Position numbers and translations under genes: made by a program. The notes below the pieces were generated by a model that worked only from the letters and a program-made list of their open reading frames with translations, was not told where the DNA came from and ran no database searches. 64,000 nucleotides of DNA from Lingula anatina (Eukaryota > Animalia > Brachiopoda), in assembly GCA_051362555.1 (NCBI GenBank), contig CM120644.1, forward strand, positions 13,042,567 through 13,106,566. The letters are read 5' to 3'. Positions 1-34,808 of the stretch are shown here, piece by piece. How positions within the stretch are numbered: the stretch's first letter is position 1; each line of letters opens with the position of its first letter.

Positions 1-507
1 ATTATGTCGTCCCTGAACATACGAACGATTTCATATCTCACATAAATTTACCAGGTGCCAAGGCACCCACTTTGCACGCCGAAAAGACCGGTGTCACGAA
101 ACTAATTAAGTCCGTGTAACAGAAAGTCCGCCCTCCACATAATTATAATGGTAAGGGGTGGAATGATCTAAGTAAGTCAGAATCTTAGATGAGGCAATTA
201 CCTGTACAAATGAATAGGAAGAGAATTATCATGGGGGACTCTATGTCAAGTTACACTGGGACATTTTAAAGGCAACAGGTAAAATGCAAATAGTAAAAAT
301 AAATAAAGGGTTTTTATAGACAGTGAATTCTAAATTAGGAAATATAAGAAATTGTACGGGATAAAATTATGGCTGTAGATCATTCTCCAACGCGAATACT
401 TTACTTTCAAATTTTCATTGTAAAGCCTACCCTAAGCGTCTATGCGGAATGCTTTTTTTTCTTTTGTTTCACTTTTCTATTGATGTCATTTTATGTAAAA
501 ACTTGGA
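1..507. repeat. Partial copy of a local duplicated block (matches ~1373-1680 and ~9157-9990)
   Basis: Near-identical stretches such as attatgtcgtccctgaacatacgaacg and gacagtgaattctaaattaggaaatataagaa recur at 1373/1490 and, slightly diverged, at ~9157/9797. The duplicated ORF MAVDHSPTRI... is a by-product. Confidence 0.9.
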
Positions 508-866
508 TCATGCCAATTTTCGAACTTAACCTGCGTTTGAGTAAGATTGATTACTACTGTGAGTTTTATGACAACAGGCTTAAGGGTTTTCCTTGAAATA
601 TATTTACAGTGTTGCATATATGCTTAAAAAGTTTTAAAAAAAACGCATAATTAAACAATAATGGCCCGATCATGCTGATTTTCGAACTTGACCTGCGTTT
701 TATTAATATTCATCAACTCTGTAAATATAAAGCCAAAAAGTAAAACTGCCCTCCACTTATCGTGTTTACAAGGAAAGTGCACGGCACCGACGGCGACGAC
801 GACGGCGACGACAGACGCAGGTGATGGCAATATGTACAGACACATCTGTGTCTGTACATAAAAAAT
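507..866 (-). mobile_element. HINE/Helentron-like non-autonomous element fragment (same family as 58301-59150)
   Basis: Terminal palindrome atgtacagacacatctgtgtctgtacat next to an A-run, (GAC/GGC)n microsatellite, and catgctgattttcgaacttgacctgcg units; reverse complement of the 58301 element. Confidence 0.7.
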
Positions 867-2064
867 TAGTTTTGGTCTTAGTTCAAGCTTTTGAGTGTTT
901 TGTTTCATATTAAACTGTTTCAATTTTTCAGTTCGGATCCTGGTTCTAAAGGACAGCAGAAGATAAAGCAAGATGGAGTTTTCTTAAAAAAAAAAATACT
1001 ATACTCAAGAACTGATCATTATAATTACTATTTGATTATCTTTTTTAAAGACGATTTTCGTTTTATAGATATTAGATTTCGTTGTTTTGTTCAAAGTGTG
1101 TTCAGATATAATAATAGTAATAGTAATAATAGTAGCAAGAATATATGGTATTCAATTTTCACCAAGACTGTCTTTATTGTAATACCATCAACCGGAAATA
1201 AAGCACACGGAACGAAACGATCTCTTCCGCCCTTAACACTGTGTCTGTGTTTATACTATAAATATTTTATGTTCGTTTGAGTGTAATGAATTAGAACATA
1301 AAATGTATTAGTATACTCGACGTAGTTCCGCCGCAGGAACTCAACCTGCTTGATCGTGTATCATACAAGGGAATTATGTCGTCCCTGAACATACGAACGA
1401 TTTCATATCTCACATAAATTTACCAGGTGCCAAGGCACCCACTTTGCACGCCGAAAAGACCGGTGTCACGAAACTAACTAATTAATTAAGACAGTGAATT
1501 CTAAATTAGGAAATATAAGAAATTGTACGGGATAAAATTATGGCTGTAGATCATTCTCCAACGCGTATACTTTACTTTCAAATTTTCATTGTAAAGCCTA
1601 CCCTAAGCGTCTATGCGGAATGCTTTTTTTTTCTTTTGTTTCACTTTTCTATTGATGTCATTTTATGTAAAAACTTGGACTTCAAAATCGTCTTTGTGGC
1701 GTGGTCAAACTTAATCGAATGAAATGTGGTGGCATTGGTTTTCTAAATCCTTGGGACAATGATAACAACCAAGTACGGCTCTCAGAAATAGTTTATGACA
1801 ACAATAGGATATGCCTTTCCGAAAGGCATGTGGATTAAAGGAAGATGTCCATCCATTTAAACACAAGTCCTGGGTGTGAATTATGGATAATTAACAAAGA
1901 AGAATATTCGGCTTCGCCTGCAATTAACACGCATATCCTAGTCACATGAATGACGCATTTCTAGAAAGTGAAAGATATTAGTAGGAAGGGCATAAATAAA
2001 AGAAAAAGACAAGGGAGGAAAGTGTGTACATACACATGCTAAGTGTGTGCGCGTGCTCGCGCGC

Positions 2065-2099
<35 letters not shown>

Positions 2100-3164
2100 G
2101 AAAGGAAAATTAGAGAGACAACAAGAGACAGTGATTTACCAATGTAAGCATGTGCACAGGTGAGTGACGATAGCCACGTGTGTATATTTACCTGACCCTC
2201 ATTGTCATGATTAGCCCTTGAACTGCTACGGTTTCCCATACCGTCACTGCGAAGGAAAATACCGTTAAACGACCTAGCTGCGATGTCATGCACAGTTTAA
2301 CCAGGAAATTATATCGGATATACATACCTAGGGATGTTATATGACCGTGGCGATATGATGATCACTGAAGCCTGTCCATTTAGCCAAGCTTCAGTGAAGA
2401 TCGAGGGCAACCTCGAGCCGCTACCAAAAATGTCTCGCTTCACTCGACATTTCTGCGTAGCGTCTCTCGGAGAACACGGATTTAACCTCGATGTAGTCTA
2501 GAATTTCACGACTACATCTTGGTTAAATCAGTCGAGGTCTCTTAAATGCTGAAAGCCAAAGTCAGTGATCGTGTGACCTTCTTGGCATCAAGAGAATAGT
2601 GACGTTGCTTACGTTATATACCTACCAATAGACAAATTTAAAATCTCTCACACCCTTAAAAAATTAGCATAAACTTTTCACGTTTAACAATTATTAATTA
2701 TCTTTTTATTACATTAAGTCATGTCATATGGGTATGGTTCGAAAACGGGAATTAGTTAACATTGAAGCCACACGTGTATACAAATTATTTTTAAATCTAT
2801 AATTTTTTAACGAGGGTTGTGTTATTATTTACCTTTTGTTTTTAAGCTGTTCATTCTTCCTCTTTATCAGATATATTGGTGTAACAGACCGATAGCTCGG
2901 GTTGATGTTTCTTTATTGTTATTGTACAAATATCTGCAAATATCTCCAAATATCTGCAAGAGCAATATAAACAAATTAATTTTAAACAATTACATATACA
3001 AAATTTACACTGACGAAAGACAAGAAAGACAGAACAAAGAAATAAAAATATAGCAATGCCAAAAACACCATAAAAAATAAATATATCAATTTAGAAATGT
3101 ATGAATTTAAACTATGGATTGGTCCTTTATTAAATATAGTGTAGTGCCAGGGGCAGGTAGAACC

Positions 3165-3238
3165 GGCCGGGTAGCTCAGTAGGTAAGAGCACTCGCCCTG
3201 TAAGCGAGGGGTCCCGGGTTCGATTCCTGGTCTGGCTG
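3165..3238 (+). tRNA. tRNA-Thr(TGT)-like sequence in the TRIM 5' LTR (probably not a functional tRNA gene)
   Basis: Cloverleaf GGCCGGG/TCTGGCT, GCTC/GAGC, CTCGC-CCTGTAA-GCGAG, CCGGG-TTCGATT-CCTGG. A and B boxes present, T5 follows. C instead of U at position 33 and three G-U pairs in the acceptor stem. Confidence 0.55.
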
Positions 3239-3355
3239 GTGATTTTTCTGCACTCACCCCAAATCGCTACAATGGTGGCAGCGGTGTTGCGAGATAGGGC
3301 TCGCGTCTTTCGGCATTTGGGGGGGAGGAGTGTAGTGCCAGGGGCAGATAGAACC

Positions 3356-3429
3356 GGCCGGGTAGCTCAGTAGGTAAGAGCACTCGCCCTGTAAGCGAGG
3401 GGTCCCGGGTTCGATTCCTGGTCTGGTCG
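3356..3429 (+). tRNA. tRNA-Thr(TGT)-like sequence in the TRIM 3' LTR
   Basis: Same cloverleaf as 3165-3238, with acceptor 3' strand TCTGGTC. Confidence 0.55.
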
Positions 3430-5837
3430 GTGATTTTTCTGCACTCACCCCAAATCGCTACAATAGTTAAACTTACCTGCAAGCTCACTGGAATACCTAT
3501 TTCAGTTATTCAACCTGCATCTCCGTCCGACTCTCAGGTGGAAATCAAATTTTATGGGGCGCGGTCTTTCAACCCTTGACCTCCACGTACACATACGAAC
3601 ATATACGATACACACCGAACACAATCATAGCTAACACAACAAACACAGCAAACCTTACATTGGTAAAAATCAAATGTGTTCCCCCTTCGAACTTGTAATT
3701 ACAAATAGCATATGAATGCTCTAAAAACCAGCACATGTATATTCCGAAACCGCCTTGCAGTAAAAAATGTCACCAAAACGTAGAATTATTACTCCTGTGG
3801 ACTTGAAATAAACATCCGTTTGATTTTGACTATATTCCGTAACCGCCTCGTCGTCAGAAATAACAATAAAATACTAGAATTATTACTCCCGTGAACTTGT
3901 TATAAACATCCGTCGATTTTGACTATATTCCGAAACTGCCTCGTTGTCAGAAATATCACCAAAAAGTAAATTTCATTCTCCTTTGCACTTGTGAAAAATT
4001 AGTTTGACTATATTCCGGTCCGACGCTCCTTTTTTATTAGAAATGTCACTAAAAAGTAGAGGTTTTGCCTTGGGACCTTTTTTCCGCAGCAGTCCAAGCT
4101 TGGTGTGGCTCAGCTGAGACCCGCATGGTCAGCGTCGACGGTTGATTAAATACTTTTCAAGCAAATGAACGTCCACGACAAGTATTTAACAAAAATTGAC
4201 CAAATTGGTCAGACATTACGTAAGAATTATGCGGGAGGTGACCAGCGCACGTGGACGAGTTTATTCCGTATAACATCTCTAGAGAGTGATATAGGGTCAC
4301 TTTATTAGGTTTTAGGGGTGTTTTAGGATGAAATGACTGTATTTTTTCTCGGTATGTATGTCACCCTCTCGCGATATATGCCATGAACACCTTTCGCTGA
4401 CGCTCGAGGTGTTATGGCATATATCGCTCGGGTGACAGTGTATTATCTCACACATAATTCCCTGGTTTAACAAACAAAGCCTATTTATATATTGAGTCCG
4501 CTTTTATATGATACGCACTCAGTAAAGTAATTGGCAACCTTGACTTAAATTCATTGTACTATAAAGTACACACAAGCGCGCGCGTGTACACACACGCTCT
4601 GAAATGTAGACACATGTTGGGCGACACACTTATATAAACTGCATTAAAGCTATTCCTTTCAAATCAGAATATCCACATATAATGACTAACATTGAAACTG
4701 TCCACGTGATACTTTTAGCTGGCTACCCGGTGTGTACCTGACACGGATCTATGCTATTCGTGCATTTAAATTATGGCTGCTTCCTTTTGCGATGTTAAAA
4801 TTGGGCCAGCCTACCCACTTCACTTTGATATTGACATTGAACACTTAATCTTTCATCACATTTTGACCCTGTTCTTCATCTTTTTTTTTCTCTAAGAAAA
4901 TAGATCAAACAAAAATAAATAGGATAGTGCCTTAATTGTCACAGCATAAATTAGAAAGTTGGCATATCATTGACTACGCGCGAATCAGTTATGCCCGACG
5001 GCGTGAGTCGTATGCGGAAGAGGGTAAGTCCTCATTGTCGCATTGACTTTTTTTACATCCAGTTCGGAATGGTTTTCAAAGAAATTCATAATAAAGGCAA
5101 GTGAATCATATACAGAATATCTGAAGTATGCGTGAGTGTTTGAAGGTTAATATGAAGAATACCCTGGTAGACAATTAATTAGCTTGTGCTTCTATACACT
5201 TAATCACCTGTCTCTTTCTCTCTCTCTCTCTTAAAGTTAATGCACGTGAAATGTATTCTCTTTAGTAAATGGCAATCATGTACCAAAAATAGGGGCAAAC
5301 TCTCATCGCTGATATTAGTCATTTTAGTCTCACTTACAGTGTAGTGCACTGGCCATCAGACGACATAAAGTCTTGAACCTACAGGCACCGGTATATTATA
5401 AAACACCTCCTCACCACTATAAGGCCCCAATCCTATAGATACCATAGTCTATGTGGATCGAACCAACTCTGCAGGGATCTCGCTGTCTGCCTCCTCCTGA
5501 CGTTAAGTACAATACAGAAAAGGTGGTGACTTTACGAGAATGCTGAGAAAAAGAGGAGACATGTCATTCAGTTTAGCTCCTTGCACTTAGCAAGAGACCA
5601 CCCCCCCACCCCAGAGTTGGATCGGTCCACGTGAATGATGGTACTATGGGAATGGGGTCTAACATATCTACCAGAGTACATGATTAACAGTTTACTACTT
5701 TTGAGTAATGTATTTCAGGAAAAATTGTCTAATCTCCGTCCTTGGCTAATGCAAATTAAAGTTTTATCTTCCAAGCAGGTGAATTGGAAGCATTATTTCT
5801 TCGGTGCAAAGCCGTTGCATCCTTGACAGTAATAATT

Positions 5838-8341
5838 TTAAGGTTGCCCCCTATCGTAGACTAAGAACAAAATGGCGGGATTCGGCCAGTAGTAGTTAGC
5901 GCCCTCTGGATCTCCTTCCTGCGAGACTTTGCGAGCTGTGCCGTCTGCGCTTGCCCCAAGAAACACGTTACTTCCGGCACTGTAAATGTTGAACCTGAAA
6001 TTTATAAATCAGCCAATAGTATATAATTATCATAGCAATAAAGTTAATAAATGAGACGCCATTTATGAAAACTAAATTCGGTTTTGTTAAAGAAGTTGCT
6101 GCCATCGAATCGTCAAGTTAAATGACTAGCAATTCTGGTAGGCAATTTATTAATTTATTGCGCATAAAAATGATAAAATGTTGTAATCATGCTTATAAGT
6201 ACCTTATGTTTCGTCCAACTTCTGGCATTGTATACACTGGCCACCTTGACGGGTTGAATATTTGAGAATGGGTCGGTTGTGAAGCGTCTACGTCATTTGA
6301 CTCATTTGAGGGGTTCTGTTTGAACAAAATGGAAACGTGTATAATAAACAGCAAACTGGTGTTATTCAAACGAGTAATTAACCCTGATGAAAGAAAACTT
6401 CTCTAGGGGAGATCTGATCGTGACACAGCCAAGGTTTGCCAGCTGAGAAAGGCGTAGGCCTACTGATACTATTTGGATACTATTCCAAATGATAAATATT
6501 CAGTAACATGACATTATACTCACGAAAATATAAATGTAACGATCATGTGACATTTTGTTTCACGGAGAAATAGGCCCTATACTGTGCAACTACTTGATAA
6601 AACTCCTAAAAATCGGCACCAAGCAAATTCTTGAACAAAAGCAACATTTCATTCAGCCAAGACAAATACAAAAACTCTATTTAGCGTCTTCAAAATATCT
6701 TGCAAAGAACAGACAAAGAGGAAGACTAATATCCTCCACCGTACAACTGCAGGTATGTGACTTTCTGACAAAATGAATTGCAAAAAGAGCATTTCTGTTA
6801 ATATGGTTGAATTTTCATATTTTTAAAAACAGTCATGTCCAGGTTGGTACATGTATAGGATAATACTATGTTTGTCTTTGAATGTCAGGACTTAACAATG
6901 ACTTTCTAAACGCACCTCTGCCTTGGTCATCCCTTAATGAGCTTTGTTATCAACGTGAACGGTGTACCATCAATTGATTATGGAACTATGGTGTGCTTTA
7001 TGTCAATAAGGACTATCCAAAGGACTATCGTAACGTACCTGTAGGGAATGTCAAATCTTACCTCAGGTTTTGCGACAACTATATCGCCATCCACAGTAAT
7101 TGTATACCATGTGTTATCTCCATCTTGCTTAAATTGGTAGCCGCGGATTTTCAAAATAACTGGGTCGAGATCGGTAACTACATACCAAGGCACATCTTGA
7201 GGAGAATCAGTCTTCCGAGCAGTTGCAGGAAAATTGCTCTGCCAAGTAAACTTCGCTGAAAAAGGAGGATGCATACATTGACATTTGTCTAAGCCTTGGA
7301 CACATTTGATACAAAACGTATGTGATAAGAAATACCCTAATCAAGTTTAGCGATATTAAAACGACTGCGGACATAGGAAAAGGGAAAAAATACAAACGAC
7401 ATTAAAAAGACTACATAAATAGAAAGAGGAAAAGTTTCGCTTTTTCTCAATACATGTACCTCAAGCCGTAAAATGATATGCACACTTTAAGAGCTAAATC
7501 ACTGTTTTTACTTAATGAAAATAGGCAGGGACATAAAAAAGCATTCCATAAACAAAAATTTGGCAGTTACTTGCATCAGCGTCCAATGTTCCGGCCATAT
7601 CAACAACGTATTCGTCTTTGTCCGGGTCCACTTTCACGTTGGTCACTTGCAGAAATCCATCTCCTGCATTGGACATCACTGACCACAGCGACACAATATC
7701 ACCGTCTCTAGGCTGAAATGAGGCAATTTTCCGTATTGTATTGTACTGTATTGTATTATCTTGTATTGTACTGTACTGTACTTACTGTACTGCACATGTA
7801 TTGTATTTCATTACATCACGTCACGTCACATCACATTACATTACTTTACATTACACTAAAACAACGGTGTCAATACATTTAGATCCTGCTTAAAGTAGCA
7901 AAAATGGACGGACATTGAATCAGTAAGCAGACAAATCTACAAAGTCTACGATAAACACAAGTCGTAGAAATACATGGATAAATAAATAAAGTAAACGATT
8001 ATGAAACATCATGTATATTTAGAATAAAACAAATAGTTATGTTTATTCGTGCAATACTAATGAAATAGTACATGTGCTTTAAATATACTCACAGGTGGAT
8101 ACAAACAAACAAACGTGGAAAATAATGAAACGAGTGTAAGGCAGACACAGGGACAGACAAACAGATAATGTTTACGCATGCGCAGACGCACCTGATTGGA
8201 CGGTGCTGACTTCCTATTGTCATGGACTACAACTTGCACTCCACAATTGGGCAAAGGCACGATGTCGATCTTGAAATCCTCGGTGTCACAACGTGGTGGG
8301 CGTGGCAGAACCCGATCTTCGGCGCTTTCGCTCGCCAGAGG
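5838..8341 (-). CDS. Putative beta-trefoil (IL-1/FGF-like) protein, paralog 1; 5' exon(s) uncertain
   Basis: Exons 8341-8192, 7712-7571, 7255-7062, 6315-6203, 5994-5838 (TAA); all GT-AG, phases 0/1/0/2, no stops. PLASESAEDRVLPRPPRC...PRDGDIVSLWSVMSNAGDGFLQVTNVKV...KFTWQ...WYTITVDGDIVVAKPE...QIFNPSRWP...RFNIYSAGSNVFLGASADGTARKV...PAILFLVYDRGQP*. Clear paralog at 52884-55660. Tentative first exon 12095-12015 (MPYAHARS...KRKCL, phase 0). Gene structure is well supported; the fold is inference. Confidence 0.85.
7733..7856. repeat. Pentanucleotide microsatellite (ATTGT/ACTGT/ACATT)n in an intron
   Basis: Direct inspection. A related ACTAC pentamer run lies at the equivalent intron position of the paralog (~53344-53380). 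Confidence 0.8.
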
Positions 8342-9095
8342 CTAAAAGGACAATGTTATACTATAAATGGATCCTGCTACTTTCACAATACAGTACCGGG
8401 TATACATTTGTCTCTATACCCTCATGATGCAAATCGATTAAATCACAGTCTAGGTTTTATGACGTCGTGTGAAAACAGATGTAGACTTCCCACTTTTGAA
8501 GGATTGAATTAGGGAAGATGTAGGGAAAATGTAGGGACATTTTTTAATGTGCTTTTGTTAATAATAATAATAATAATAATGAAATAATTGTGGGCCTAGG
8601 TCGTATCATAAATTGTATCGATCCCTTAGGGAGACAAATCATCAGTATTAACTTGGAACTACGATGCACTGTTGCACCCTGCGTCAAAGGCCTGCTTTCT
8701 CCCACAGTAAACAATATCTCCCGATTTGGTGAGCCAGATCGGGATGCACTATAATCAGGGTGTAAGTAAGGGTGTAAGTGGTCTCCCCGCCTCTCACGCC
8801 TCCCCACGCGTCGTCCCTTCGGGAGCACAGTAAATAAATCTCGGCTCAACTCAAACGGTCGGGGGAACACGCGTGGGAGAGGCGGAAAGACCATTACAGG
8901 ATTAAGCAGTCTTCCTTTGATGTAGGTCCGCCATTTTTATGTCGAGGCCTAGCTAGCACTCGGGTCTTCTCATTCTCAATAGTCTCTGTCTCGTGGGCAC
9001 ATTTGGGACAGAGAAAGCCAAGATAGACACGTACACGGTGCACATACAATTCGAAGTGTACTGTGTGTAAAAGAGACAAAATGTCAAAAGTTTAA

Positions 9096-10386
9096 GTATA
9101 CTCGGCGTAGTTCCGTCGCAGGTACTGAACCCGCTCGATCGTGTATTATACCAGGGAATTATATCGTCCCTGATCATACGAACGATTTCATATCTCGCGT
9201 GCATTTCCCAGATGCCAAGGCAACCACTTTGCACGCCGAAAAGGCCGGTGTCACGAAACTAAGGGCCCGTGTAACAGAAAGTCCGCCCTCCATATAATTA
9301 TGGGCTAGGTAAGGTTTGGAATGATCTAAGTAGGTCAGAATCTACAGGGCGACGCTTACCTGTACAAATGAATGGGAAGAAAACTATCATGGGGGACTCT
9401 CTGTCACGTTGCACCGGGATATTTTAAAGGCAACGGGTAAGATGCAAATACAGGCCTAACCAACTACCAGACTCGGCACCGAATGATCCTGAATTCACCG
9501 GTAGATCAGACCACACTACCCGTTTTCAAGGTGTGTGTCAGATTGCATTACACAGTATCATACCCTGAACAAATTTTGAGTAGTGATGCAATGCTTTTCA
9601 ACCCCGCTGAGAATCGTCACTATCACATCGCGTACTAGGCAAGAGCGGTGTCGCGTCTGATACTGTGTAATGTGATCTGACACACACCTTGAAAACGGGT
9701 AGTGTGGTCTGATCTACCGGCGAATTCAGGATCATTCGGTGCCGAGTCTGGTAGTTGGGTAGGCCTGAAATAGTGAAAAAGGTTTGTTTTTTTTCGACAC
9801 TGAATTCTAAATTAGGAAATATAAGAAACTGTACGGGATAAAATTAGGACTGTGGATCATTCTCCAACGCGTACACTTTACTTTCAATTTTTCATTGTAA
9901 AGCCTACCTTGAGCGTCTATATGGAATGTATGTTTTTTTTCTTTTGTTTCATTTTTTAATTTTTGTCATTTTATGTAAAAAAATTGGACTTCAAAATCGT
10001 CTTTGTGGCGTGGTCAGTGATAACAACCTTGGGACAATGATAACAACCAAGTAAGGCTCCCGAAAGTATTGTATGACAACAATAGGATATGCCTTCCCGA
10101 AAGGCACTTGGATTAAAGGAAGATGTCCATCTAGTGTAACATAAGTCCTGGGTATAAATTATGGATAATTAACAAAGTAGAATACTCGGCTTCGCCTGAA
10201 ATTAGCACGCATGTCCTAGTCACATAAATGATGTATTTCTAGAAAGTGAAAGATATTAGTAGGCGTACTAGCACGCATGTCCTAGTCACATGAATGACGC
10301 ATTTCTAGAAAGTGAAAGACATTAGTGGGAAGGGCATAAGTAAAAGAAAAGGACAGTGGAGGAAAGTGTGTACATACACATGCTAA

Positions 10387-10437
<51 letters not shown>

Positions 10438-11401
10438 AAAACTAGAGAGAGAACAAGAGACGTACAATTATGTACAAATACAAGCATGTGCACAGGTGAG
10501 GGACGATAGCCATGAATGTATATTTACCTGACGCTCATCGTCGTGTTTAGCCCTTGAACCGCTGCGGTTTCCCATATCGTCACTGCGAAGGAAAATACCG
10601 TTAAACGACCTAGCTGCGATGTCATGCACAGTTTAACAAACAAAGCCTATTTATATATCGAGTCCGCTAGTATATGATACGCAGGCAGTAAAAGAATTGG
10701 CAACCTTGACTTAAATTCATTGCACTAGTTCACACCAGCGCGCGCGCGTACACACACGCTCTGAAATGTAGACACAAGTACATGTCGGGCGACATACCTA
10801 TATAAACTGTATCATAGCTATTTCTTTCAAATTAGAATATCCACATAGAATGACTTACAATGAAACTGTCCACGAGATCCTTTCAGCTGGCTGCCCTGTG
10901 TGTAACTGACACAGATCTTTGCCGTTCGTCTCTTTAAATTTTGGCTGCTTCCCTCTGCACTGTTAAAATTGGGCCAGCCTACCCCCTTCACTTGGATATT
11001 TGAGATTGAACACGCTTAATCTTTCAACACATTTTGACCCTGTTATTTTGTGTCTTAAGAAAATAGATCAAACACAATCAAATATGATAGCGCCTTGTCA
11101 CAGCATAAACCCACCGCCCATGGAGTCAAGTCGATTAGAAAGTAGGCATTGCATTGACTACGTGCGAATCAGTTATGCCCGACGGCGTGAGTCGTATGCG
11201 GAAGAGGGTAAGTCCTCATTGTCGCATGCCCTTTTTTTTACATCCGGTTCGGAACGGTTTTCAAAGAAATCCAAAAATAAAGATCAATAAAGGCAAGTGA
11301 ATCATACACAGAATATCTGAAGTATGCGTGGGTGTTTGAAGGTTAATATGAAGAATGCCCTGCTAGATAATTACATGTAATTAGCTTGTGCTTCTATACG
11401 C
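9096..11401. repeat. Duplicated block homologous to 1310-5200 and 1-507
   Basis: Colinear identity. It contains the 9451-9767 MITE, a ~66-bp tandem duplication at ~10205-10330 and (GT)n(GA)n at ~10387-10434. Confidence 0.88.
9451..9767. mobile_element. Foldback MITE with ~110-bp TIRs and a 5-bp TSD
   Basis: caggcctaaccaactaccagactcggcaccgaatgatcctgaattc... is mirrored by ...gaattcaggatcattcggtgccgagtctggtagttgggtaggcctg. AAATA on both sides; empty site gcaaatagt at ~286-294. Confidence 0.92.
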
Positions 11402-12294
11402 TTACAACCTCTCTTATCAGAGTCCTGCTAGTAGGGCACCTCAAATTAATATTTTATCTGTTTGTTAGAGGCCTTTACTTTTAGTTTTATGGATCACTCA
11501 AGATTTTGTATACTTTATGTACAGTGGCAAAGGGTTCAAGATGTAATCCGGATTATCGGGAATTGACAATTCAGCGTAGAAAAGTATATCGGTACGTTCA
11601 TATTTTTCATATTTTTATCTGCTTGTTGGAGGCCTTTTCTTTTAATTCTATTGATCATTCAAGATATTGTAAACGTTACGTAGAATAGGGCTCAGGGGAT
11701 AATCGAAAGTATAAATACATGTTTAAGCGATTTCATTCTGTTGAACTTAAGAGATAGGCAGAGTGACAGCTCAATGCAAGGGCAATGTATTTAGTGCCAA
11801 GTTCATCATAGACTTGTTTACACAAATAATAATCTTTTCTTTCTTTCTTTTTTTTTTTTTTTTTTTTTTGGGGGGGGGAAGGGGGGGGGCAAAAGTGCAA
11901 CCACTTCATGCAGCTTTCTGAACCGTAACGGAGAAGTATTTGCAGTAGGTCGTAGCATTAAGATCAAACTACTGACGTACAGCTGAAACCCACAGAGGAC
12001 GCTAGTACATGTACCAAGCACTTTCTTTTTTTATCCTGATTTGTCGTCATTTCCCGATAATCCGGATGTATAGAACGTGCGTGGGCGTAAGGCATGTTTC
12101 AAGGTCTTGTTTTCATCCGCCGTAGAATGATAGGATACAATGTTCAGCCGCTGTGAAATAACTTGCTCGTATCCCGAAATTTGTTCATTTTCCTTACTTC
12201 TGGTCATTTTGTTGGATATTGCTGTTACATATGATTAAAAGGTTAATTTCTACTTATACACTTAAACACACACGGCAGTCCTTCTCTTCCTCCT

Positions 12295-12995: not shown

Positions 12996-13843
12996 TCACA
13001 CATTACTATACGTAGATCCTGGTCTGCACTTGTGGAAGACAAATAACACACCATCCTGGTGGAGAAAAAATGATGACATCAGATTAGTAATGGTAGAATG
13101 AATATATTAATCTGGTTAAATGAAAAGTATATTCGGGACATTCCATTAAAATACAATAATTATTGTATACGTAGCGTGCAAGTAAGCCATTTGCCATTTA
13201 TTTCGTTATATAAAACAGGCGCAAAGTTTTAATTAATTAAAAACAGTCTCCTACTAATTAATCTACCCTCAGATCAGACATAATTTCATTTAAAGACCAG
13301 AATTCAAAGTTAATCGGTAATATGAAACATGACATTTCCCGAAAATAAATAAAATGGTCCCAAGGCCTACATGTGATCACCCCCTTTCGTCAAAAACGTA
13401 GGCCTACCTCACTGCTACATTGTACAAGACTGACACGCTGCCAGTATGAACGAAGGGATAGCTTGAATAGCAATCTACATACAGCATATACATACCCTAA
13501 CTAGAAATGGAAAATCCGTCCAAAAGTCCTTATTTGGAATCACGTCTGTACCGGATTTATGGCGAATGAATTTCTGAGTAAGGATGCCACCAATGAGGTA
13601 TATGGGGATCACAGTGACCAAGCTGGAAGTGAAATGCCATGCCTTTGAGATAAAATCTCTGTGAAAGGTGTTGAGATTATACGCCCAGAATAAAAAAATA
13701 TGTAGCGTTACTTTTAAGAAAAAAAAATAAAATAATAAAGAAATAAATAAATAAATAAATAATAGAAATAGCTAATGCGTAATAGCATGTGCACGAAACT
13801 AAGTCAGTTCTCCCATCCTTTCCACCCCTCCTTTCTCTCTAGG

Positions 13844-17089: not shown

Positions 17090-17186
17090 TGCAGAGACCG
17101 AAAGGAAACTGAGTAGATGTACAGGGGACAAAGTCTGGACCGTACATGTGCAGATCTCTATTGTAGTGCCAGGGGCAGGTAGAACC

Positions 17187-17260
17187 GGCCGGGTAGCTCA
17201 GTAGGTAAGAGCACTCGCCCTGTAAGCGAGGGGTCCCGGGTTCGATTCCTGGTCTGGCTG
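17187..17260 (+). tRNA. tRNA-Thr(TGT)-like sequence in the TRIM 5' LTR
   Basis: Identical to 3165-3238. Confidence 0.55.
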
Positions 17261-17377
17261 GTGGTTTTTCTGCACTCACCCCAAATCGCTACAATGGTGG
17301 CAGCGGTGTTGCGAGATAGGGCTCGTGTCTTTCGGCATTTGGGGGGGAGGAGTGTAGTGCCAGGGGCAGGTAGAACC

Positions 17378-17451
17378 GGCCGGGTAGCTCAGTAGGTAAG
17401 AGCACTCGCCCTGTAAGCGAGGGGTCCCGGGTTCGATTCCTGGTCTGGCTG
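17378..17451 (+). tRNA. tRNA-Thr(TGT)-like sequence in the TRIM 3' LTR
   Basis: Identical to 3165-3238; followed by T6. Confidence 0.55.
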
Positions 17452-17745
17452 GTGGTTTTTTCGCACTCACCCCAAATCGCTACACTATCTTGTTATTACC
17501 TGATTCTTCACCTGCCCCGAACAGAGACTGAGAGAACGGACTGAGGAGAAAATGAAGATTGTGCCGTGCATTATAGCAATATTTTGGGTGGTTCTTACAT
17601 TTGAGAGGTAAGAAACAATACTTTGAAGTGATATAGCGTAGAGTAAGAAGAACATCCAAGTGTTTAAGCGATAACCCTGTATCAGACCAGGGAATTATAT
17701 CGGAATTCCCTGATCGGACAATGCTCCGGTGTAAGACCAATAAAT

Positions 17746-18050
17746 TCCCAGCGGGCAAACTATGTTGTTTTACCGTTGAAACAACGTTGAACCATAATGT
17801 TGATAATACGTTGGATTAACATTGGATTTGAAAGTTGACTCAACCTCAGAAAACAACGTTGTATCAACGTCAGATAACAACATTGTATCAACCCCAGTTG
17901 TAATTAGACAACATTCCTGCATGAAAAGACATTAAAATGACCTGAAATGTTTTTATTTTTGGTACAAAACACAGGTACACAATTATAACGTACACTGTAA
18001 AAACATCCAAGTGCCTGCTTTGTCTGATATTTTCAACGCATTTAACTCCT
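17746..18050 (+). mobile_element. DNA transposon end fragment (CCCAGC start, caacgtt subterminal repeats); second copy ~46006-46310
   Basis: About 300 bp of high similarity between the two loci. Confidence 0.7.
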
Positions 18051-19491
18051 CTCCACACTTATATATAGCACTTACACAGAAAGATTGCGTACGATACTGT
18101 ACCGGTAGTTGGCACATTTGGTTTTTCAGTCCACAGTTCACTTGGGTCTCAGAACACAAGAAGTCCGCTGGAAAATTTTGTACATTAATACATGAAGTAC
18201 ATGTATTTTAGTCCGATTATTAAGTATATAGATGATGAAAAGGCAATCAGAAAATTGCCAAATTCCTGACTATTTGATCATTCTTCCCTTGAATCAAAGT
18301 ACAGGGTCCTATATGTCACATAAATAGTATGGAAGATTTAGACTGCTATAGTCGGATAGCATAGCCGACTACATTATACCTACATGACGCACCCCAGTGT
18401 AACGTACGTGACAGAGGCTCTCATGAAAGACTGGGGTAAAACAAGCAGTGGCGTCCATTACTAGCAATGCTTGTTCAATTACTTGTGATAACCATTTTCT
18501 TGCTTTTCACAAAGGTACTGAGCGTCAATCAATAGCCGTCAGGGGGATTTTCTAAAGCTGATGCTGATTTTATCAGCGATAAATCAAAACCTCTCCAACT
18601 TTGCAACCAACCACTTTTCAACCACCTTTTCAACCAGCCCAGAGCCGAAGAAGTTACCCTGTTAATTTACCAATTAAACTCATCTTCCAGGCCCCACCCC
18701 CAATCTTAATTATCACAAGGGGTCGAGAATGTTCCTTAAATATGTCCACCGTAAAAATTTCCCTCGTGAGTTTAATACTAAATTATATTTCCTGGAGCAA
18801 ACGGTATTTTTCTTCTACCAACCAACCTTTCCCTCTCCTTTCCTGAGATGATAATAATTATTATTATAATGATAATAATAACGTAAAATTAACAACTTCA
18901 TAATGATCAAAAATATTTCTTGTCCTTAGATAAGTTCAGCAGGAATTGGTAGATGTACTGTTATGTAAACAAAGGAAAAATATGTTAATGACCATATGTT
19001 TTTATACTTTAAGAATCAAATTGTGTAATTATCATCATCATAATTGAATTTTCACTTGTGTTTCAGCCCGCACTGCCATGCGCTTGCCGATGATTCTATA
19101 TATTCCGAAACAAAGTTCGACCAAAATGATAGCCTGAGAGTAAAACAAACCGCAAGCTTGAACGGCAGGGTTGGACAAGACCTTGAAAATGGCGAGACCG
19201 ACAAAGATTCGGAGAATGACCAACTGATTAAAGATCTAGAGAGTGACCCAAGCTACAGCGAAACGAAGTCCGGTTTGATTTTTGATAAGGCAAGTGGGGA
19301 AGCTCATCCGAGAAAAATTGCAGTTAACGCCATCAAGAAAAGAAGACAAAAACGCCATAGACAGAAAACAAAGAAATCAAAGACATAAAAGAAACGTGAC
19401 AGCAAGGACCGCATTCTTAACGCAATGTTGGGAACAGTGACATTCAACGTAGGGCTTCACCCTACTCTTATTCCCGAGTAAGTGCCTGAAG

Positions 19492-19659
19492 CAGGGGCGG
19501 ATTTAAGCCGTCTTCTGGGTCTTCCGGAAGACGGTCAGATTTTTAAGTTTACATTTACGGGTATCTAATATTTTCTGTCGGAAGACGGTCAAAAATTGAG
19601 GACGAATTAACAAAGATTATTTGGAAGACTGTCAGAAATTATCTCTGGATCCGCCCCTG
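19492..19659 (+). mobile_element. 168-bp MITE, CAGGGGCGGAT family
   Basis: TIR caggggcggat/atccgcccctg; 5-bp TSD TGAAG; absent from the paralogous intron of gene B. Confidence 0.92.
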
Positions 19660-19947
19660 TGAAGTAATAAGTAGACAAATATCACCAAAAAAGAAAGTGT
19701 CTAGAACTCTTTATTGAGAGAAATAAGGCACTACTGCACAAGCGGATCGGAAATTGAAAAGAATTTTTCATTAATGAATTTTGTGTTTGTACGACTCTAG
19801 ATTTTCTATGTATTCCTTTACAAGTATTCGGGAAAAAAATTGAAACGGTGAAACTCCTTATCAATGTAAGAAATTGTCCTCTTTACATTTGAGTGATGAT
19901 ATGGTTACTATTTTTTTCAAAGACAATGGGTGGGAGTAATTGTCCAT

Positions 19948-19978
<31 letters not shown>

Positions 19979-22900
19979 CTTCCTTTTTTGATTATGTATT
20001 TTTTTTTCGGAAACACATGAAGCTGCCTCTCATTTGGGACCGATATAAGCTGTCATCCTTTAATATGGTCGTCAAAGTAGTGATTTCAAGCAATAAATAG
20101 CTTACACTTAACTGTGCGTATTATTTTTACTTATAATAAAATATATGTTTTGTTTTTTTTAACTTTCCAGATACGAAACGCGTAAAGCAAAGTTTATTGA
20201 AATAATAGAAAATGGTTCTCTTCCGGGAGATGTCGTCTGCTTGCAAGAGGTTTGGGAAGCAGACGATCTTAGAGAAATAATCTCCAAGACACAGACAGAT
20301 TTTCCATTTTCAGTCAGCGCCCTGCATCAGACTATAGACGGCGACACTGTCTTCCCCACTGCTAATCCTTTAGTACCTGCTTGTACCCTTGCTGAGGTAA
20401 ATACACTTCATTTGTTACAGTCGAGTATCATAACTCTCAAAGTTTTAACTTCATGTATATAACCTTACCTCGATTTATTTGAGCTCTGCTTCTGTTAACA
20501 GTAGAAAAATAATATGGCTTGCATATTTTGTCATCGTTATTTCCTCCCTGGGGTGGATACGGTGATGTACCTTTTAAGAAATGGGCTTCTAGAAAAGTTG
20601 AACTTGGTTTGCTCGATAACATAAAAACTGGTAACATAACTAAATTCAAAGTCATTTTTATGAATATCATCATTATCCTACTGATTTTGAATTCTGTTGT
20701 CGTTCAAAGGGCTATCACTGCATGAAAAATCAGCTTTTATATATCCTGAAAGATGATCAAAAGGCCTCCTTTTATTCACCTTCTCACACCTTTCCTAGAC
20801 CTTTCGTTTTTTTAGGAAAAGACGATCTTTTGAATGACTTTTGTATAAGCGAAAAGGTATACAAATGGCCCACTTTTCTTTACATTTTCTCTACACAAAA
20901 GATTAACTTTCATAAACCTTTTGATGTAAAAAGACGATCTTTTGCTTGAAGAAAAGGTATTCTCAAGTTCATCATTCATCAGCTTTTTGCATGCTAAATG
21001 GCATATGAATGATCCACTTTTCTCTACCTTTTCCTGACAAAAAGTCCAACTTTCAGATGCCTTTTGTGCAACTTTCCAGATACAAAAGATAACCTTTTCA
21101 AACCTTTTTATTTAAGAAAAGACTGTGTTTTTTCTTCTTTTGTTACGTATTTTAATGTAATATTTATTGCGGCAATTTAATAATATATTGATAAACAGAA
21201 CAACACATGGTATAAATTTTAATAATTTATTCCATTATAACATTTTTGTGCAGGTTGTGCTTGTCTTTTGAAAGTTTTTGATAATCCAAGGAAATTTAAT
21301 TTTCTTGTTTTGATAATCCAAGAAAGGCTCAGGAAATGTTCTCTAAATGTACTTTCAGCCAGATCCATTAGTCCTACTATATATGCGTAACTTCCCACTC
21401 TCGTGGGAGTAGTATTCCTGGAATCGTCTGTCAAGTGAACACTTTGCCTGCACAAATCTTTGCCTTTTGCCTCCTGAAAAATAGGATGCATGTAATGATA
21501 AATGTTGTTTTGGGTAACAGTTCATTTTAATGCTAATCAAATATGATAAAAACAAGGGCAACTTTTATGTCTAATAATGATGTTAGAAGTATTTTCAAAT
21601 TATGGACTTAAAGCCATCAAACGGCTTAAAAAAGAGATTTTACCTCCTTACTTTTTTTCCATATTTTTTGTTTCAGCTCATCCAGTCCTTTTGCTTGTTT
21701 TAGAACATCCTCCTACTTTTCAGATCTGTAGTATCTTTTAATGGCACCTAGTAAAGAAATAAAAAGAGTGAACTATTTGAGTGTAATATCATGCAAAAAG
21801 TTTTCAATTAGGGAAATATGAATAATGACATAACTACAAGTAATGATGAAAATATGCATTCATGATTACTGCTAGGCAACTTGATTGAGCCTTGCACAGA
21901 ACTTAGATAGGCTCCTGTATTACATACCCCATTCTTCTCTTCCAATTTTTTTTGCCTTAGCTCATCCACTTTGTTTGCTTTTATATGCTGTTCAGACAGC
22001 CTGTCTTTTAATAGCATCTGGAAAAGAAATAGTGATTTTAAGATAGTGAATTCTTTTAGTGTAATATCATACAAAAAGTTTTCATTTATGAAAATATGAA
22101 TGCTGAAATAACTACATTGTCATACAATGATGAAGATATTCATTATTACTGCTCAGGGTCCATACAGCAACATAAAAGCAATTTAAATGACTTCTGGGGC
22201 TCTTAATCAATAACTTTTCAATAACTCAATGCGTCTTACTGTCATTTTTAAAGTTTACATAGAAAAGAGGAGCATCAATTTACACAAACTTTGTACTTAA
22301 ATGATAATGAAACATGAGAAAAAAATTGACAGATTAAAAAGGGCATTCCCCCAGCATGTCTACATTCAGGTTAAAAACAAGGTTTGAAATAATCATTCGA
22401 CAAATTCTAACTGATCAAATCCCAGAATATTTTAGGGAAAAATGATGAATACAAGCCCTTTCTAAGCTTAATAACAATTTCAAGTACTTTTTATGTCATA
22501 AACAGACTGAATACATGTACAAGGGGCAATACTAGATTCAAACACTCAAAGTGCTGTACCGGGGTATGAACCCTGCGAGTGAACCAGTGCATTGATTATA
22601 TAACACTGCCTGGAATTTAGGTCAAGGAATGTAGGTCGACTATATGGGATTAATACAGGCCAGTTATATACATGTACAGAATCTTTACTTGTACGCGGGG
22701 CCGTACTTTGATGTAAACTTTTTGCAGTGTTCTAATACATAGGTCAGAGTGTTTGATTAACAACTGTTTCACGATCGTGATAACCTTTTTTCGGCGCGGT
22801 CTGTTCTCCGGGCATAAAACCCATCTTGGGCTTCCGTGACACGGTTGTATGTTCCCTTAAATATGATTGATTCACATGTTATATTAGACCTACCTGATGC

Positions 22901-23605
22901 ATTTACTCATTCTCTTCATCCTCGTCAGTTAAATTATCGCCGCAACAATTGCCATCTTGCAAAGAAGTCGACCATAATCAATACGGTGGCTTGGAAATTA
23001 TCTTCTGTGACCGGCCTGCACAGTCTTTCAGTCCGCGCATTTTCAACCGCCTGGCCTTGCGCATGCGCAGATAGTCTGTAATGGGATATCTTTCGCGCCG
23101 ATTCTCTACCATTGACCTATAGCGCAGTATTAATGACAGAAAAGCGCGCACGGCAACCTTTTACTTCGTGTTTTACTCAAGACTAAAAACAGCAAGACAC
23201 AATAATATAGATCACTAGACACGGGGCAGCCGGTCATCGTTTTACAAGGTAGGTGATATAGTGATTTCAGTAATGTTCTCACAGTGTGTGTTAACACAAA
23301 TTAGAGCCAAAGCATGCTTCTGTGATTAAAGCGGGAATCTTTCTCGAAGCACTGCATGTTGCAAGGTAATTAAGTCGTCTCTCGAGAAAGGATCGAGTTA
23401 TACTGAGTTTCATAGGGCTTGGCTTTTGTCTGTTCTAACGTTTGACCTGTTACTCACTGTGAACTTTGGAAATATATGACATGTGCATGCACGTCCACGA
23501 TACGGGGTAACAACAAGGGGTTGTCATTTTTAAAAGTGTTAGAATATTCCCATTTGTTGGATTACAAGGGGGTGCTTTAATGTGAAAGGGGATGGATTCG
23601 TCTTA

Positions 23606-23829
23606 GACCCCATTTCCAGAGATTAGATTGATATAATTTAGATCGACCTAACTCCCTGGGGGTTCACGCGAAATAGCTGTCAGCCGAGGGGACACGAAAG
23701 TTAATTACCCCCTTACAGCTTGTAGTAGGCTGGACGGACATTTAAGCCGGATTATCTGACAGTAATCTAGGGAGACCCCCCCCCCCCACCCCGGGGATAG
23801 ATTGATCTAAAAACTCTTGGAATACAGCC
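23606..23829 (+). mobile_element. PIF/Harbinger-type MITE nested in the CACTG element; second copy at 56415-56629
   Basis: Shared core gatcgacctaactccctgggggttcacgc...ctgacagtaatctag; imperfect TIRs; TTA on both flanks. Confidence 0.75.
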
Positions 23830-24499
23830 TTATACAACCGAAAATGACACCATTTAAAACAGCACTCTCTATTGCAGTTGCTAATTATAGAAAAGAATTA
23901 AGGCTCTCAGAAAATATTGTCATGTGTTTTTGTTATGTCTCTATTATTCAATGTCTTTTCTTTTATAAAGGAATGGGGCGTCACAAGAAGAAAAAGGAGT
24001 GCCTGTCGTCACAAGAAAAGAGATGAACATCTAAAAGAAGGCTGCGTTCCCGTGCTCCTGTTATACATGAATTCCCAGTCTGCAGCTAGAATAAAAATTG
24101 TTAACCTACATGTATAACCTCATTGTGTTTACCTCAGACCCCCTGTCAAATTTATAGAATTAAACATGCTGAAATGGTAAAGGGAAGACTGGCTCGCTAT
24201 GAGCAAGAGAATAAGTAAAAAGTTATGTATGGTTGATAATTTTCCTTTGATATTAAGATTAACTACAGCAGTGTAAGCAAGATGAATTAAGGATATGCAA
24301 ACAGTAACAGTGTGTCAGTAATATAACCAGTTCCAATATAAACAAATTCAAATTGCAAAGCTGATTACTACCTATCTAACTTCGGTTAAATATTTCCATC
24401 ATGCCCAGGGCCTTACTATTAGGGATTATGTAAAAGGTAAAACTTGCTCTCTGGAGTCTAAAACACATCATAACAATTTTAAGTGGTTTTCTCATTAGA

Positions 24500-25160
24500 A
24501 ACGATCCCCTGGTCAGGCAAACTATGGAGAGGCGACTTCTGACATTTATTGTAATTTTTTTTTTTGACTTGATACAATTAGTGCAAATACTGACATAACT
24601 TAAAATAACAAAGTTAGTGATGAGAGATCCTATTGCCTTTTTTGTTGAGGAGAGGTGGTTTTCTGTTTAGAGACAATCCTCTAGCCAGGCAAATTATGGA
24701 GAGGTGACCTCAAACACTATTTTGACTTGGTACAATCAATGCTAAAATCCTGACATAACTTAAAATAACAAAGTTAGTGACGAGAGATCCTATTGCCTTT
24801 TTTGACGAGGAGAGGTGGTTTTCTGTTTAGAGACAATCCTCTAGCCAGGCAAATTATGGAGAGGTGACCTCAAACACTATTTTGACTTGGTACAATCAAT
24901 GCTAAAATCCTGACATTACTGAAAATAACAAAGTTAGGTGATGAGAGATCCTATTGCCTTTTTTGTCAAGGAGAGGTGGTTTTCTGTTTAGAGACAATCC
25001 TCTAGCCAGGCAAATTATGGAGAGGTGACCTCAAACACTATTTTGACTTGCTACAATTAGTGCTATAATCCTGACATAATAAGCTAATATCCAGAGGCAT
25101 GGAGATCATTTCCTGTGAAAGTAATTATCTAGGCTAATATGGAGATGTGACCTCTGACAT
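24500..25160. repeat. ~160-bp tandem repeat (three full units plus degenerate flanking units)
   Basis: Anchor tgacataact/tgacattact/tgacataat at 24591, 24751, 24911, 25072. Confidence 0.92.
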
Positions 25161-25891
25161 ATAACTTTTTTATTTGCTGTATTTAAATCCTGACAATATT
25201 GGAATAAAAATATAAGTTACTTTTGATTCCTAAAGTTGTTTGTCGTTTAAAGCGTCAAAATTATGTCTACCCCAAGTGAAATTCGGTGAACACTTCTTCC
25301 ACTGCACTGAGTGCTATATATTTATACATAAACTCCAGCCAATGCAAGATTGCATAATTATTTCTCCGACATGCAAATCACCACATTCAATCTATCTGTT
25401 AAATACTTTAATCAAATTGCAAAACATTTTATCATGCAAACAATTTGCAAAAGTATTCGCTTTTTTCATACTGTGCTTAATGTAAGATACGGAATTAAGT
25501 CATGTACATAGAATAACTAGTATACATACAAAAGATCACCACGCAATATTATGAAATTAGTCTTAAGCTTTCAAAAAATAAAAACATTCACAACATGTGA
25601 CCTTTCCAGTCAACAAAAGCTGGAATGTAAGGTGGCCTTTCGCACTGTAAAAGGTGATAGTTGAACTTTTGAAAACTGAAAGTTAATTAAAATGTGAATG
25701 ACGGTCTTTCCGAGAGGTAAAAGTTGATAAAAAGATGACCTTTTACAAATAAAAGGTGAAAGATGACCTTTTCGTCAGGAAAGGATGATGAAAGATGAGG
25801 GATCATCTTTCGATAACATTTTGTAGATAACTGAAAGGCGATAAAAGGTGTTTTTTCATGCAGTGTATGGTGCTGATACCTATTAAGCGTT

Positions 25892-25931
<40 letters not shown>

Positions 25932-26989
25932 CATAAATTCAATACGGAATAAATCGTTCCATGGTGAATACCGTGCGCTTGCAATACGTTAACGTTTTCT
26001 GTCAAAAGATTTTTATTTGTTGTCATTTCCTTGTGTGGGAAAGCATAACATTTGGTTCCACCTTTAATTACAGGTGAATGCAGTATCCCAGTGTTTTTTT
26101 AACAATTGTGTCGCGAACAATGCGCCAGACAGGTTTTTGTGTTTCGTTGGGAACTGCACAGCAGAGTACCAGGCGCTCTCCCAGGTCTGTTTAGCTTGCC
26201 TTTTGGCACGGCAAACTCAAAATGTGAAAGAATTGCTGAATGCTTTCAGTCGAACTGAGCTTTGTGCTACAACCCCTTACGAGATGACCTATGGCCTAGT
26301 GATACTCAGCAAACGACCGATAGATGACACTAGTTTCGTAGACTACCACGATGGATATTCAGTGAGTGTGCCGCGCGGGTATCTTCGTGCCAAGGTACGT
26401 ATATTCAATCCTCAGAAATCATTTATGCATGGAAGTGTAAATGATTTAAATAAAATCAAGCCTGGCTGTAGCCACGCTCGACTGTCACCTTGTTTGATTA
26501 ATCAGCCTACTGAAAGGACCTACAAAACCTCATGAAATGAAAAATCCTAGCAAAATCAATTAGGCATTTTTATCTTAAACTGACATGATATAAACAAAAT
26601 TTATTTTGGTTAATTTGTTAAAAATTAAAATGGTACACCGCTGAGGTTTCAATATCAGAGAATTATTCTTGTCAAATTGGTATTCAAACTAATTATATGC
26701 ATACCGTCTAGAGTGTTCTGAAAGGTATCAATCAATATGAATATAAGTATTAAAATTTCAGTGTTCAATTCCAGTTGCATCGTTCACAATTTCCGCTCCT
26801 AAACCATATTCTTACCGAATTTTATGAAAAGTTTCTAAAGCCAAATTTTGTCTGGCACTAAATATATTCCTCTAGAAAAAAAAAGGTGTTACCCCTGCCG
26901 CACTGATGTACATTGCTACTGGGGAAAGATACCCATAGGTATAATTTTACTAGTGCATAACAACTAGGAAACCGATTATCGTGCAGCCC

Positions 26990-27440
26990 ACATAATTAGT
27001 GGTATGGGGTGTATCGGCTTCTTAGGTGTACTTGTGCTTGTATTGGTCAACGGGAAGCGTAACGCAGAACATTACATCCAAGTTCTGGAAAGAAACTTAA
27101 TAAGGAATTCTGTCAAGAATATCTTTTCTTTCAGCATGACTATGCTACCCCACTTACAGTCAATGTAACAGTATAGGCTGGTTATATGCAAATTCAGATT
27201 CAGCCCCCCCCCCTCCCCCCTCCCATGGCCAGCTCAATCCCTAGATCAGAACCTCAAAAGAAATGTGTGGGATATCCTCAGAAATAGATAGCTGAAGGAT
27301 AACCTTGCAAACAAAACTGATCACATTCTTTGAGGAACGCCAACACTCTACAAACGTTAAAAACTTTTTAGCAAAAAGCACAGTTCGCGTCAGGTGCATT
27401 TTCCAATCCAGAGGATACTGTACAATATACTATATCGTGG
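26990..27440 (+). mobile_element. Degenerate Tc1 transposase fragment
   Basis: Frameshifted remnants VWG-CIGFLGV, QHDYATP (QDNAP-like) and PWPAQSLDQNLKRNVW (WPAQSPDLNPIENVW-like). Confidence 0.7.
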
Positions 27441-28700
27441 AATTTATTTACTATCATAAGCTTATTAATTTCTTGCACAATCAGTAAAAAAAATTGTAAA
27501 ACAATCCCTTCAGAATCTGATAAAAAACAATGGATTATGACATTACCTTCTGTATCACTTTACGCACTACATTATGGGTGACACTTTTTTTTTTTTTTTT
27601 TTTTTTTTTGCTAGGGGAGTACGTCTATAGGTCAATTGTCAATACACTTAAGTATTTAAACAAACATTTTTTTCCTACAGGTTGGTGGTGTCCACGTGTT
27701 CTGTACTCACACAACCCCTGTTCTGACGGATATTTACTTAGATGGTAAGTAGGATAACAAGTGTTTAAGAGGGGCATTTACTTAAGGGAGTTGGACCCAC
27801 GTAATGGGCTTAGCGTCTGCTTCCCCCCTTCTTTGCTCAACATTTTGTTATAAAAGGGCATTCTTTCACAAAATTACGAAAAAAATACTTGTCATATGGC
27901 TTGGCTGCTATGTATTCGTTTTGATGTCAATTTTAAAGAAAGGGAAATGAAAGGTCTGTGCAACAGCGAGTCCGGTATTCACTCATTTCAAACAAGTCAG
28001 TGTCGATGTGACTCAAGTGGATCAAAATATAGGACGGGGTAGGGGGGGGGTGGCTCTACAAATTATTGCATCAACGTGACCTTGAGTAGTGCCTCGAATT
28101 GCCTTATGTGTGAGTAGTCCGCTTAACACTGATAACCGGTATAAACCTAATGTATTTCCTTGTCTACTAAGTAATTTAATCTCTGTTCATATTGTAACTG
28201 TTATACATCATCTTTTGATAAATGGTGTCCATGGTTTATCTTTATATAATTTGTCTATAAATGAGCAATAGTGTGTTCTTTAAATCAATTTCCAGGCCGT
28301 TTCGGTAGTTACGAGGAACAAAGTTTATATGAACTTGGAACGCTCCTGAACGCTGCAAATCCCGTTCTCGAGAAATCACTTTTGCTGGGCGATTTCAACA
28401 CTTCACCGAGTATCCCGGATGCAAACATTACGTCACAGCTTCCCGTGGCCTATCAGCTCCTGACCCAGAACTACTTTTCCCCTTATCTGGAGGTAGTGAC
28501 GTCATGCACATACTGCAATGATAACTGGCTGACTAACAATCGCTCTGACCGTATAATAGACCACGTGCTTCCACCCAAATCATGGAGGGACCAAATAATG
28601 GAGAAGGTAAAGGGAGATATTAGTCGTACACGCGTGATTTAAGGTTACGGGTGTGTGTGGGAGTGTGTGTGGGGGGGGGGGGGGGGGGGAAGGGGGGGCA

Positions 28701-34770: not shown

Positions 34771-34808
<38 letters not shown>

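Follow-up and report, generated by a model that had tools for sequence, protein, structure and literature searches.

The 323-bp element at positions 3140–3462 of the window, the whole 64-kb stretch of Lingula anatina DNA that was analyzed, is a young, full-length, non-coding copy of a miniature LTR retrotransposon. Judged by its sequence, this copy (copy A) almost certainly belongs to the published family Helenus-1_LAn and lies in the published host genus of that family. Helenus-1_LAn was described from Lingula anatina in Data S1 of Kojima (2024, Biology 13:119; PMC10886601), and Table S1 of the same work gives an LTR of 132, an interior of 59, a full length of 323, and a target site duplication (TSD) of 4. 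Copy A has the same lengths, the same TSD length, and the same host genus, and differs from the published consensus by point differences only; 320 of the 323 positions are identical in a comparison made by eye rather than by program alignment. The suggestion in the first-pass annotation that the family may be new is therefore withdrawn, since the family was published in 2024. Its assignment of the element to the non-autonomous, tRNA-bearing TRIMs of the Helenus class is supported by the cassettes in the LTRs, the primer binding site (PBS), the polypurine tract (PPT), and the consensus match. As a discovery the element adds little, with class, family, and host already in print; the gains are modest and include proof of insertion, in the form of an exact empty site, and a testable account of the way its RNA could be produced.

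The anatomy of copy A, all on the forward strand, is that of Helenus (TRIMp3). The two LTRs, 132 bp each (3140–3271 and 3331–3462), have TG...CA ends within a 5-bp terminal inverted repeat, TGTAG, and agree by eye with the Helenus-1_LAn-LTR consensus at 130 and 131 of 132 positions, respectively. Between them lies an interior of 59 bp (3272–3330), identical by eye to Helenus-1_LAn-I at all 59 positions. The PBS, TGGTGGCAGCGGTG, follows directly behind the 5′ LTR (3273–3286) and matches, by eye, 14 of 14 nt at the 3′ end of the tRNA-Leu-AAG shown in Fig. S2 of PMC10886601, an Apis mellifera tRNA. The PPT (3319–3330), a run of 12 purines, adjoins the 3′ LTR. At less than 1000 bp and without coding capacity, the element also has the properties of a TRIM. 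It is flanked by the TSD ATAG (3136–3139 and 3463–3466); when flank lengths of 1–8 were tried, the two sides matched at 4 only. The LTR, interior, and TSD lengths (132 bp, 59 bp, and 4 bp) and the presence of PBS, hairpin, and PPT in the interior had all been read correctly in the first pass.

Each LTR carries a tRNA-like cassette with a TGT anticodon, C33, and three G-U acceptor pairs, which would serve as promoter for Pol III and make up the greater part of the putative R region. The cassette of the 5′ LTR occupies 3165–3238 and the second one, located by Rfam and by sequence within the 3′ LTR, 3356–3429. Box A (TAGCT...AGG, 3172–3183) was recognized from the motif description in section 3.5 of PMC10886601 and box B (GGTTCGATTCC, 3217–3227) as a sequence motif. 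Both boxes are intact, with TAGCT and GGTTC present, and box A ends in AGG as against the YGG of the published motif. A scan of the LTR sequence found no TATA, AATAAA, or ATTAAA. In the whole element there are only two runs of four or more T, one just behind each cassette: a T5 at 3243–3247 and a T5 at 3434–3438. The first is a candidate terminator for Pol III, and synthesis of a full-length RNA by this polymerase would require read-through at that point.

RNA folding predicts a 5-bp hairpin, GCGAG-ATAGGG-CTCGC, in the interior (3289–3304), with a pair probability of 0.95 in the folded RNA. As a special structure it was discarded: 175 of 200 shuffled sequences fold as well as the whole interior (z = +1.04). 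The hairpin re-uses both 5-mers of the anticodon stem of the cassette (3192–3208) in swapped order, so that an alternative pairing between the two is possible; the sharing may be due to chance.

The insertion itself is established by an empty site. The contigs of four DNA runs (X1, X6, X7, and X11) were searched for a joint lacking the element, and such a joint, in which position 3135 is followed directly by 3463, was found in two contigs of X6 and one of X7, that is, in two of the four runs and in two studies. The 327 bases skipped are the element plus one TSD, leaving a single copy of ATAG. The X7 contig is 356 nt long, with 209 and 147 bases on either side and three differences. The joint was not seen in the contigs of X1 and X11. 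This exact empty site is the pre-insertion sequence and proves insertion. It may represent an allele, or else a paralogue or another copy of the 2.17-kb repeat that hosts copy A, since that repeat is multi-copy in the DNA runs. Further insertion sites are indicated by contigs and reads that leave the element exactly at 3140 and 3462 and continue into differing flanks.

The host repeat (2300–4466, no strand assigned) is non-coding and DNA-transposon-like, with terminal inverted repeats ACCAGG(A/G)AATTAT and a TTA duplication; a reading with a TTTAA duplication also fits. Minus the Helenus copy it measures ∼1.84 kb, contains inner 93-bp repeats, and has hairpins near both ends. It is missing from the paralogous segment near 10631–10637, and remnants resembling its terminal repeats lie at 9150 and 17686.

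A second full-length copy (copy B, forward strand) lies at 17162–17484, with LTRs at 17162–17293 and 17353–17484. It agrees with the Helenus-1_LAn consensus at 314 of 323 positions, counted by eye via the differences between copies A and B. Comparison of its flanks gave the TSD CTAT (17158–17161 and 17485–17488). The flanks of the two copies, over 1.5 kb per side, have no homology except for one 19-bp match. Both TSDs, ATAG and CTAT, are of the 4-bp length found for animal Helenus, and the 4-mers at this spacing match at 341 of 63,660 window positions (0.5%); at this background both TSDs would arise by chance with a probability of ∼3e-5. With distinct TSDs and unrelated flanks, the two copies are independent insertions, as had been proposed, and the condition named at that time as speaking against the element, other copies without TSDs, is not borne out in copy B, which has a TSD of its own. 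The ATG (17552) in the first coding exon of a paralogous EEP-domain gene lies 67 bp downstream of copy B, which may therefore sit in the promoter or leader of that gene. The paralogous gene region near copy B can be aligned in short pieces only.

The LTRs within each copy are nearly identical (97.7% in copy A, with 3 of 132 positions different, and 98.5% in copy B, with 2 different). Four LTR sites are variable: positions 18, 97–98, 103, and 109–110. The first-pass annotation had taken the variants to be specific to each LTR pair, as expected from reverse transcription. This holds for position 103, where both LTRs of each copy have a variant in common, but the argument was overstated, as the other three of the four sites, left out in that annotation, do not follow the pairs: within copy A the two LTRs disagree at positions 18 and 97–98, and within copy B at 109–110. 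Only one difference separates the 5′ LTRs of the two copies, against three between that of copy A and its own 3′ partner. Since the LTRs are not identical within a copy, the account needs a further component, be it mutation, gene conversion, strand transfer from one RNA to another, or an error of assembly. At position 3348 (LTR position 18 of the 3′ LTR) the window has A, while G is found in all aligned contigs and, with 4 exceptions, in the 41 RNA reads across this position. Both states of 97–98 are found in other copies among contigs and reads, on which ground the differences within pairs are likely to stem from gene conversion or from strand transfer involving two RNAs; assembly error is possible.

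How such an element might be transcribed and moved can be set out in some detail, and the whole account, in which a Helenus-1_LAn copy is transcribed by Pol III from its 5′ cassette with read-through of the T5 run and is mobilized by Gypsy proteins, is probable. Boxes A and B would recruit Pol III, with a start near 3165 (LTR position 26). Many polymerases would stop at the first T5 (3243–3247) and yield a tRNA-like by-product of ∼83 nt, and those reading through would stop at the second (3434–3438) and yield an RNA of ∼274 nt. Such an RNA would have a cassette at both ends, serving as an R of ∼83 nt, with a U3 of ∼25 nt and a U5 of ∼24 nt. A host tRNA-Leu could then prime at the PBS and the PPT could prime the plus strand; the proteins of a Gypsy element would copy and integrate Helenus-1_LAn, with the Gypsy integrase generating the 4-bp TSD upon insertion. 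The PBS TGGTGGCAGCGGTG also occurs in Gypsy-130_CGi and Gypsy-57_CaAu (Fig. S2, PMC10886601), and Gypsy partners have been inferred for animal Helenus (PMC10886601). The longest stop-free stretch within the 64-kb window is 168 aa. Self-priming by the cassette of the LTR itself was considered and rejected: the canonical offset gives no extra pairs beyond CCA, and a second TGG gives four extra pairs with the 5′ cassette and one with the 3′ cassette, compared with 11 for tRNA-Leu.

Because the T5 runs are the only runs of four or more T, a Pol III RNA fit for reverse transcription would have to pass the first and stop at the second. Such read-through is plausible, given the leakiness of human Pol III in vitro, which terminated at 52% on T4 and 64% on T9 (PMC13385618; a human enzyme, not that of Lingula), and given the headed Helenus LTRs of supplement part 7 (PMC10886601), of which 22 out of 24 have a run of at least four T between box B and the LTR end. 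This count was made by eye on related, not independent, families, with one headless and one cut-off entry left aside. The available text of PMC10886601 does not discuss a Helenus terminator and uses “terminat” twice, both times about Cassandra. One T5 present in both LTRs, to be passed once and obeyed once, is thus a design problem that this text leaves unaddressed.

A more far-reaching and tentative proposal, for which we hold the chances to be below even, is that Helenus-1_LAn is still moving in Lingula, so that some animals carry this insertion and others lack it; that the leaky T5, passed once and obeyed once, makes the whole cassette R and at the same time releases the by-product; and that U5, by pairing with the PPT side, may hold the RNA closed about the PBS. 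The pairing would join U5 (3257–3264) to the beginning of the PPT side (3315–3322) through 8 complementary bp. Among shuffled sequences an 8-bp run appeared in 92 of 3000 and the pairing energy was reached in 229 of 3000, and for the 83-nt fold the comparison with shuffles gave 11 of 200. As the pairing was chosen after the fold had been seen, it is a weak lead only. A similar match between U5 and the PPT side, in other letters, was seen by eye in several other animal Helenus consensus pairs of the PMC10886601 supplement.

Expression was checked in four raw long-RNA runs from three studies, mostly poly(A)-selected, a type of library from which short Pol III RNAs are lost. The indexed runs recorded as containing the element included no RNA run, an absence without weight in either direction; altogether, 8 of 22 listed runs were aligned. 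Reads from the element numbered 34, 8, 59, and 4 in 12.4, 9.5, 8.4, and 11.1 million records, respectively, and 41%–100% of them continue into unlike flanks. Neither a Pol III transcript nor sharp read starts or ends were seen in these four runs; libraries of this kind cannot show short Pol III RNAs and so speak neither for nor against the Pol III route. In long RNA, Helenus-1_LAn is thus present at a low level, probably as a passenger in longer transcripts. The RNA that transposes could instead be a Pol II read-through of host transcripts spanning a copy, with the cassette and its T5 yielding short dead-end RNAs. Reads extending into flanks without sharp ends, a T5 that precedes the PBS, a copy B lying so close to a host start codon, and the multi-unit read-through transcripts reported for Cassandra (PMC7215508) all fit this explanation. 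The same long-RNA libraries, being mostly poly(A)-selected, favor flank-spanning reads in any case, and Helenus families have retained both box A and box B (PMC10886601). The Pol II route is, on balance, unlikely, at something like one chance in a handful. A further point against it comes from the mechanics of copying. For strand transfer, an RNA that lacks defined R ends makes a poorer template. Transcription by Pol III from the 5′ cassette is the reading retained here.

The cassettes are called as genes by tRNA scanners. ARAGORN reports tRNA-Thr(TGT) in all four LTRs of the two copies, and Rfam RF00005 matches all four at 57.8–58.5 bits (gathering score 29); these are the sole Rfam matches in the window. 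The warning that scanners would miscall the element as tRNA genes was justified, and the two young copies inflate tRNA-Thr counts in automatic annotation. That the element carries working tRNA-Thr(UGU) genes is nevertheless improbable. Such genes would account for the full tRNA scores of all four cassettes, for the terminator behind the cassette, as in a true tRNA gene, and for the retention of all seven acceptor pairs, G-U counted, in both common variants of 97–98. Elongator tRNAs have U at position 33; the cassettes have C33, and three of the seven acceptor pairs are G-U where a tRNA-Thr would need a stable acceptor stem. The predicted fold lacks a cloverleaf acceptor stem, with the reservation that such folds ignore modifications, and “LAn” is absent from the list of predicted functional families in Fig. 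S1 of PMC10886601. Because of C33 and the three G-U pairs, the cassette is more likely to be a promoter than a working tRNA. LTR anatomy could also be mimicked by two conserved tRNA genes in tandem, or by a SINE dimer, but nothing except the scanner calls points to this. This explanation, the syntenic gene pair having been named in the first-pass annotation as a possible refutation, was rejected on the exact empty site and the two different TSDs of fixed 4-bp length; the TG...CA ends, the PBS and PPT at canonical positions, and the lack of an A-rich or tandem tail leave it practically no probability.

A few observations would fit a window that is not from Lingula, with an element acquired by horizontal transfer or present through contamination. 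Microsatellites abound in the window, the identity of its host gene to the LOC106164300 protein falls short of 100%, and a 160-nt piece of the element turns up in a run labeled as another organism. The exon at 28268–28639 gave one match at E ≤ 1e-10 among 107 candidates, to Lingula anatina LOC106164300, and the protein of this gene has seven exon matches at 31946–39681 with 88%–100% identity. These matches place the host in L. anatina or a species very near to it, and horizontal transfer is not needed. One species label is common to 10 of the 11 runs that contain the stretch or part of it. The piece in the remaining run (X11) is one contig from 13.3 million records, with five differences, a depth of 3.7, and no flank, and was set aside as unusable evidence for transfer. 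A foreign origin thus has only a very slight probability, and the element is treated as resident in Lingula.

The gene at 31946–39681 forms a tandem EEP-domain (PF03372-like) pair with a paralogue at 17552–29931, with a predicted signal-peptide-like start; the upstream paralogue matches the LOC106164300 protein at 62%–92%. A Pfam scan of 12 of the 56 ORFs of the window returned only EEP-domain and ATG27/M6PR-like matches, the latter class being represented by a mannose-6-phosphate-receptor/ATG27-like exon on the minus strand (13475–13768). The window also contains segmental duplicates (1–5202 and 9086–11404, ∼82%–89% identity) and inverted related segments (7056–7775 and 53343–54433, 76%–78%), with exon-like ORFs for which that scan of 12 of 56 gave no Pfam match. 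Two tandem arrays with units of ∼160 bp lie at 24483–25079 and 58346–59133, and the family of the latter also matches 506–864 in inverted orientation.

For Helenus-1_LAn, the available text of PMC10886601 reports neither a copy number nor a PBS assignment, and neither an empty site nor expression data, “LAn” being found there in Data S1 and Table S1 only, and Helenus is mentioned in one sentence in that of PMC12859917. Pol III transcription of any Helenus is likewise unvalidated in the available text of PMC10886601, and the short Helenus-1_LAn suits such a test; if the proposed route is true, this 323-bp element would be a very small test case of Pol III-driven LTR retrotransposition in animals. 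Its closest published relatives, Helenus-3_LAn and Helenus-2_LAn, have the same LTR ends, the same start of the PBS, and a similar PPT but differ in a diverged cassette and U3 and in length, 322 and 314 bp, respectively (PMC10886601). Helenus-3-like variants were seen by eye among the aligned contigs and reads.

Among better-known systems the nearest analogue is Cassandra, a plant TRIM with 5S rRNA in its LTRs, which is also non-coding (PMC7215508; PMC10886601). Each of its LTRs provides Pol III with both a promoter and a terminator, its transcript runs from the 5′ into the 3′ cassette (PMC7215508), and it offers a precedent for the terminator arrangement proposed for Helenus. Cassandra differs in having a 5S rather than a tRNA cassette, in its length of 565–860 bp against 323 bp here, and in a reported R of 18 bp compared with the ∼83 nt suggested for Helenus-1_LAn; moreover, Pol III transcription has been shown for Cassandra, whereas for Helenus it is inferred. 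The tRNA-derived SINEs (SINE2) are similar in being non-autonomous and in having a tRNA-derived internal Pol III promoter, but they lack LTRs, PBS, and PPT and are moved by LINE target-primed reverse transcription.
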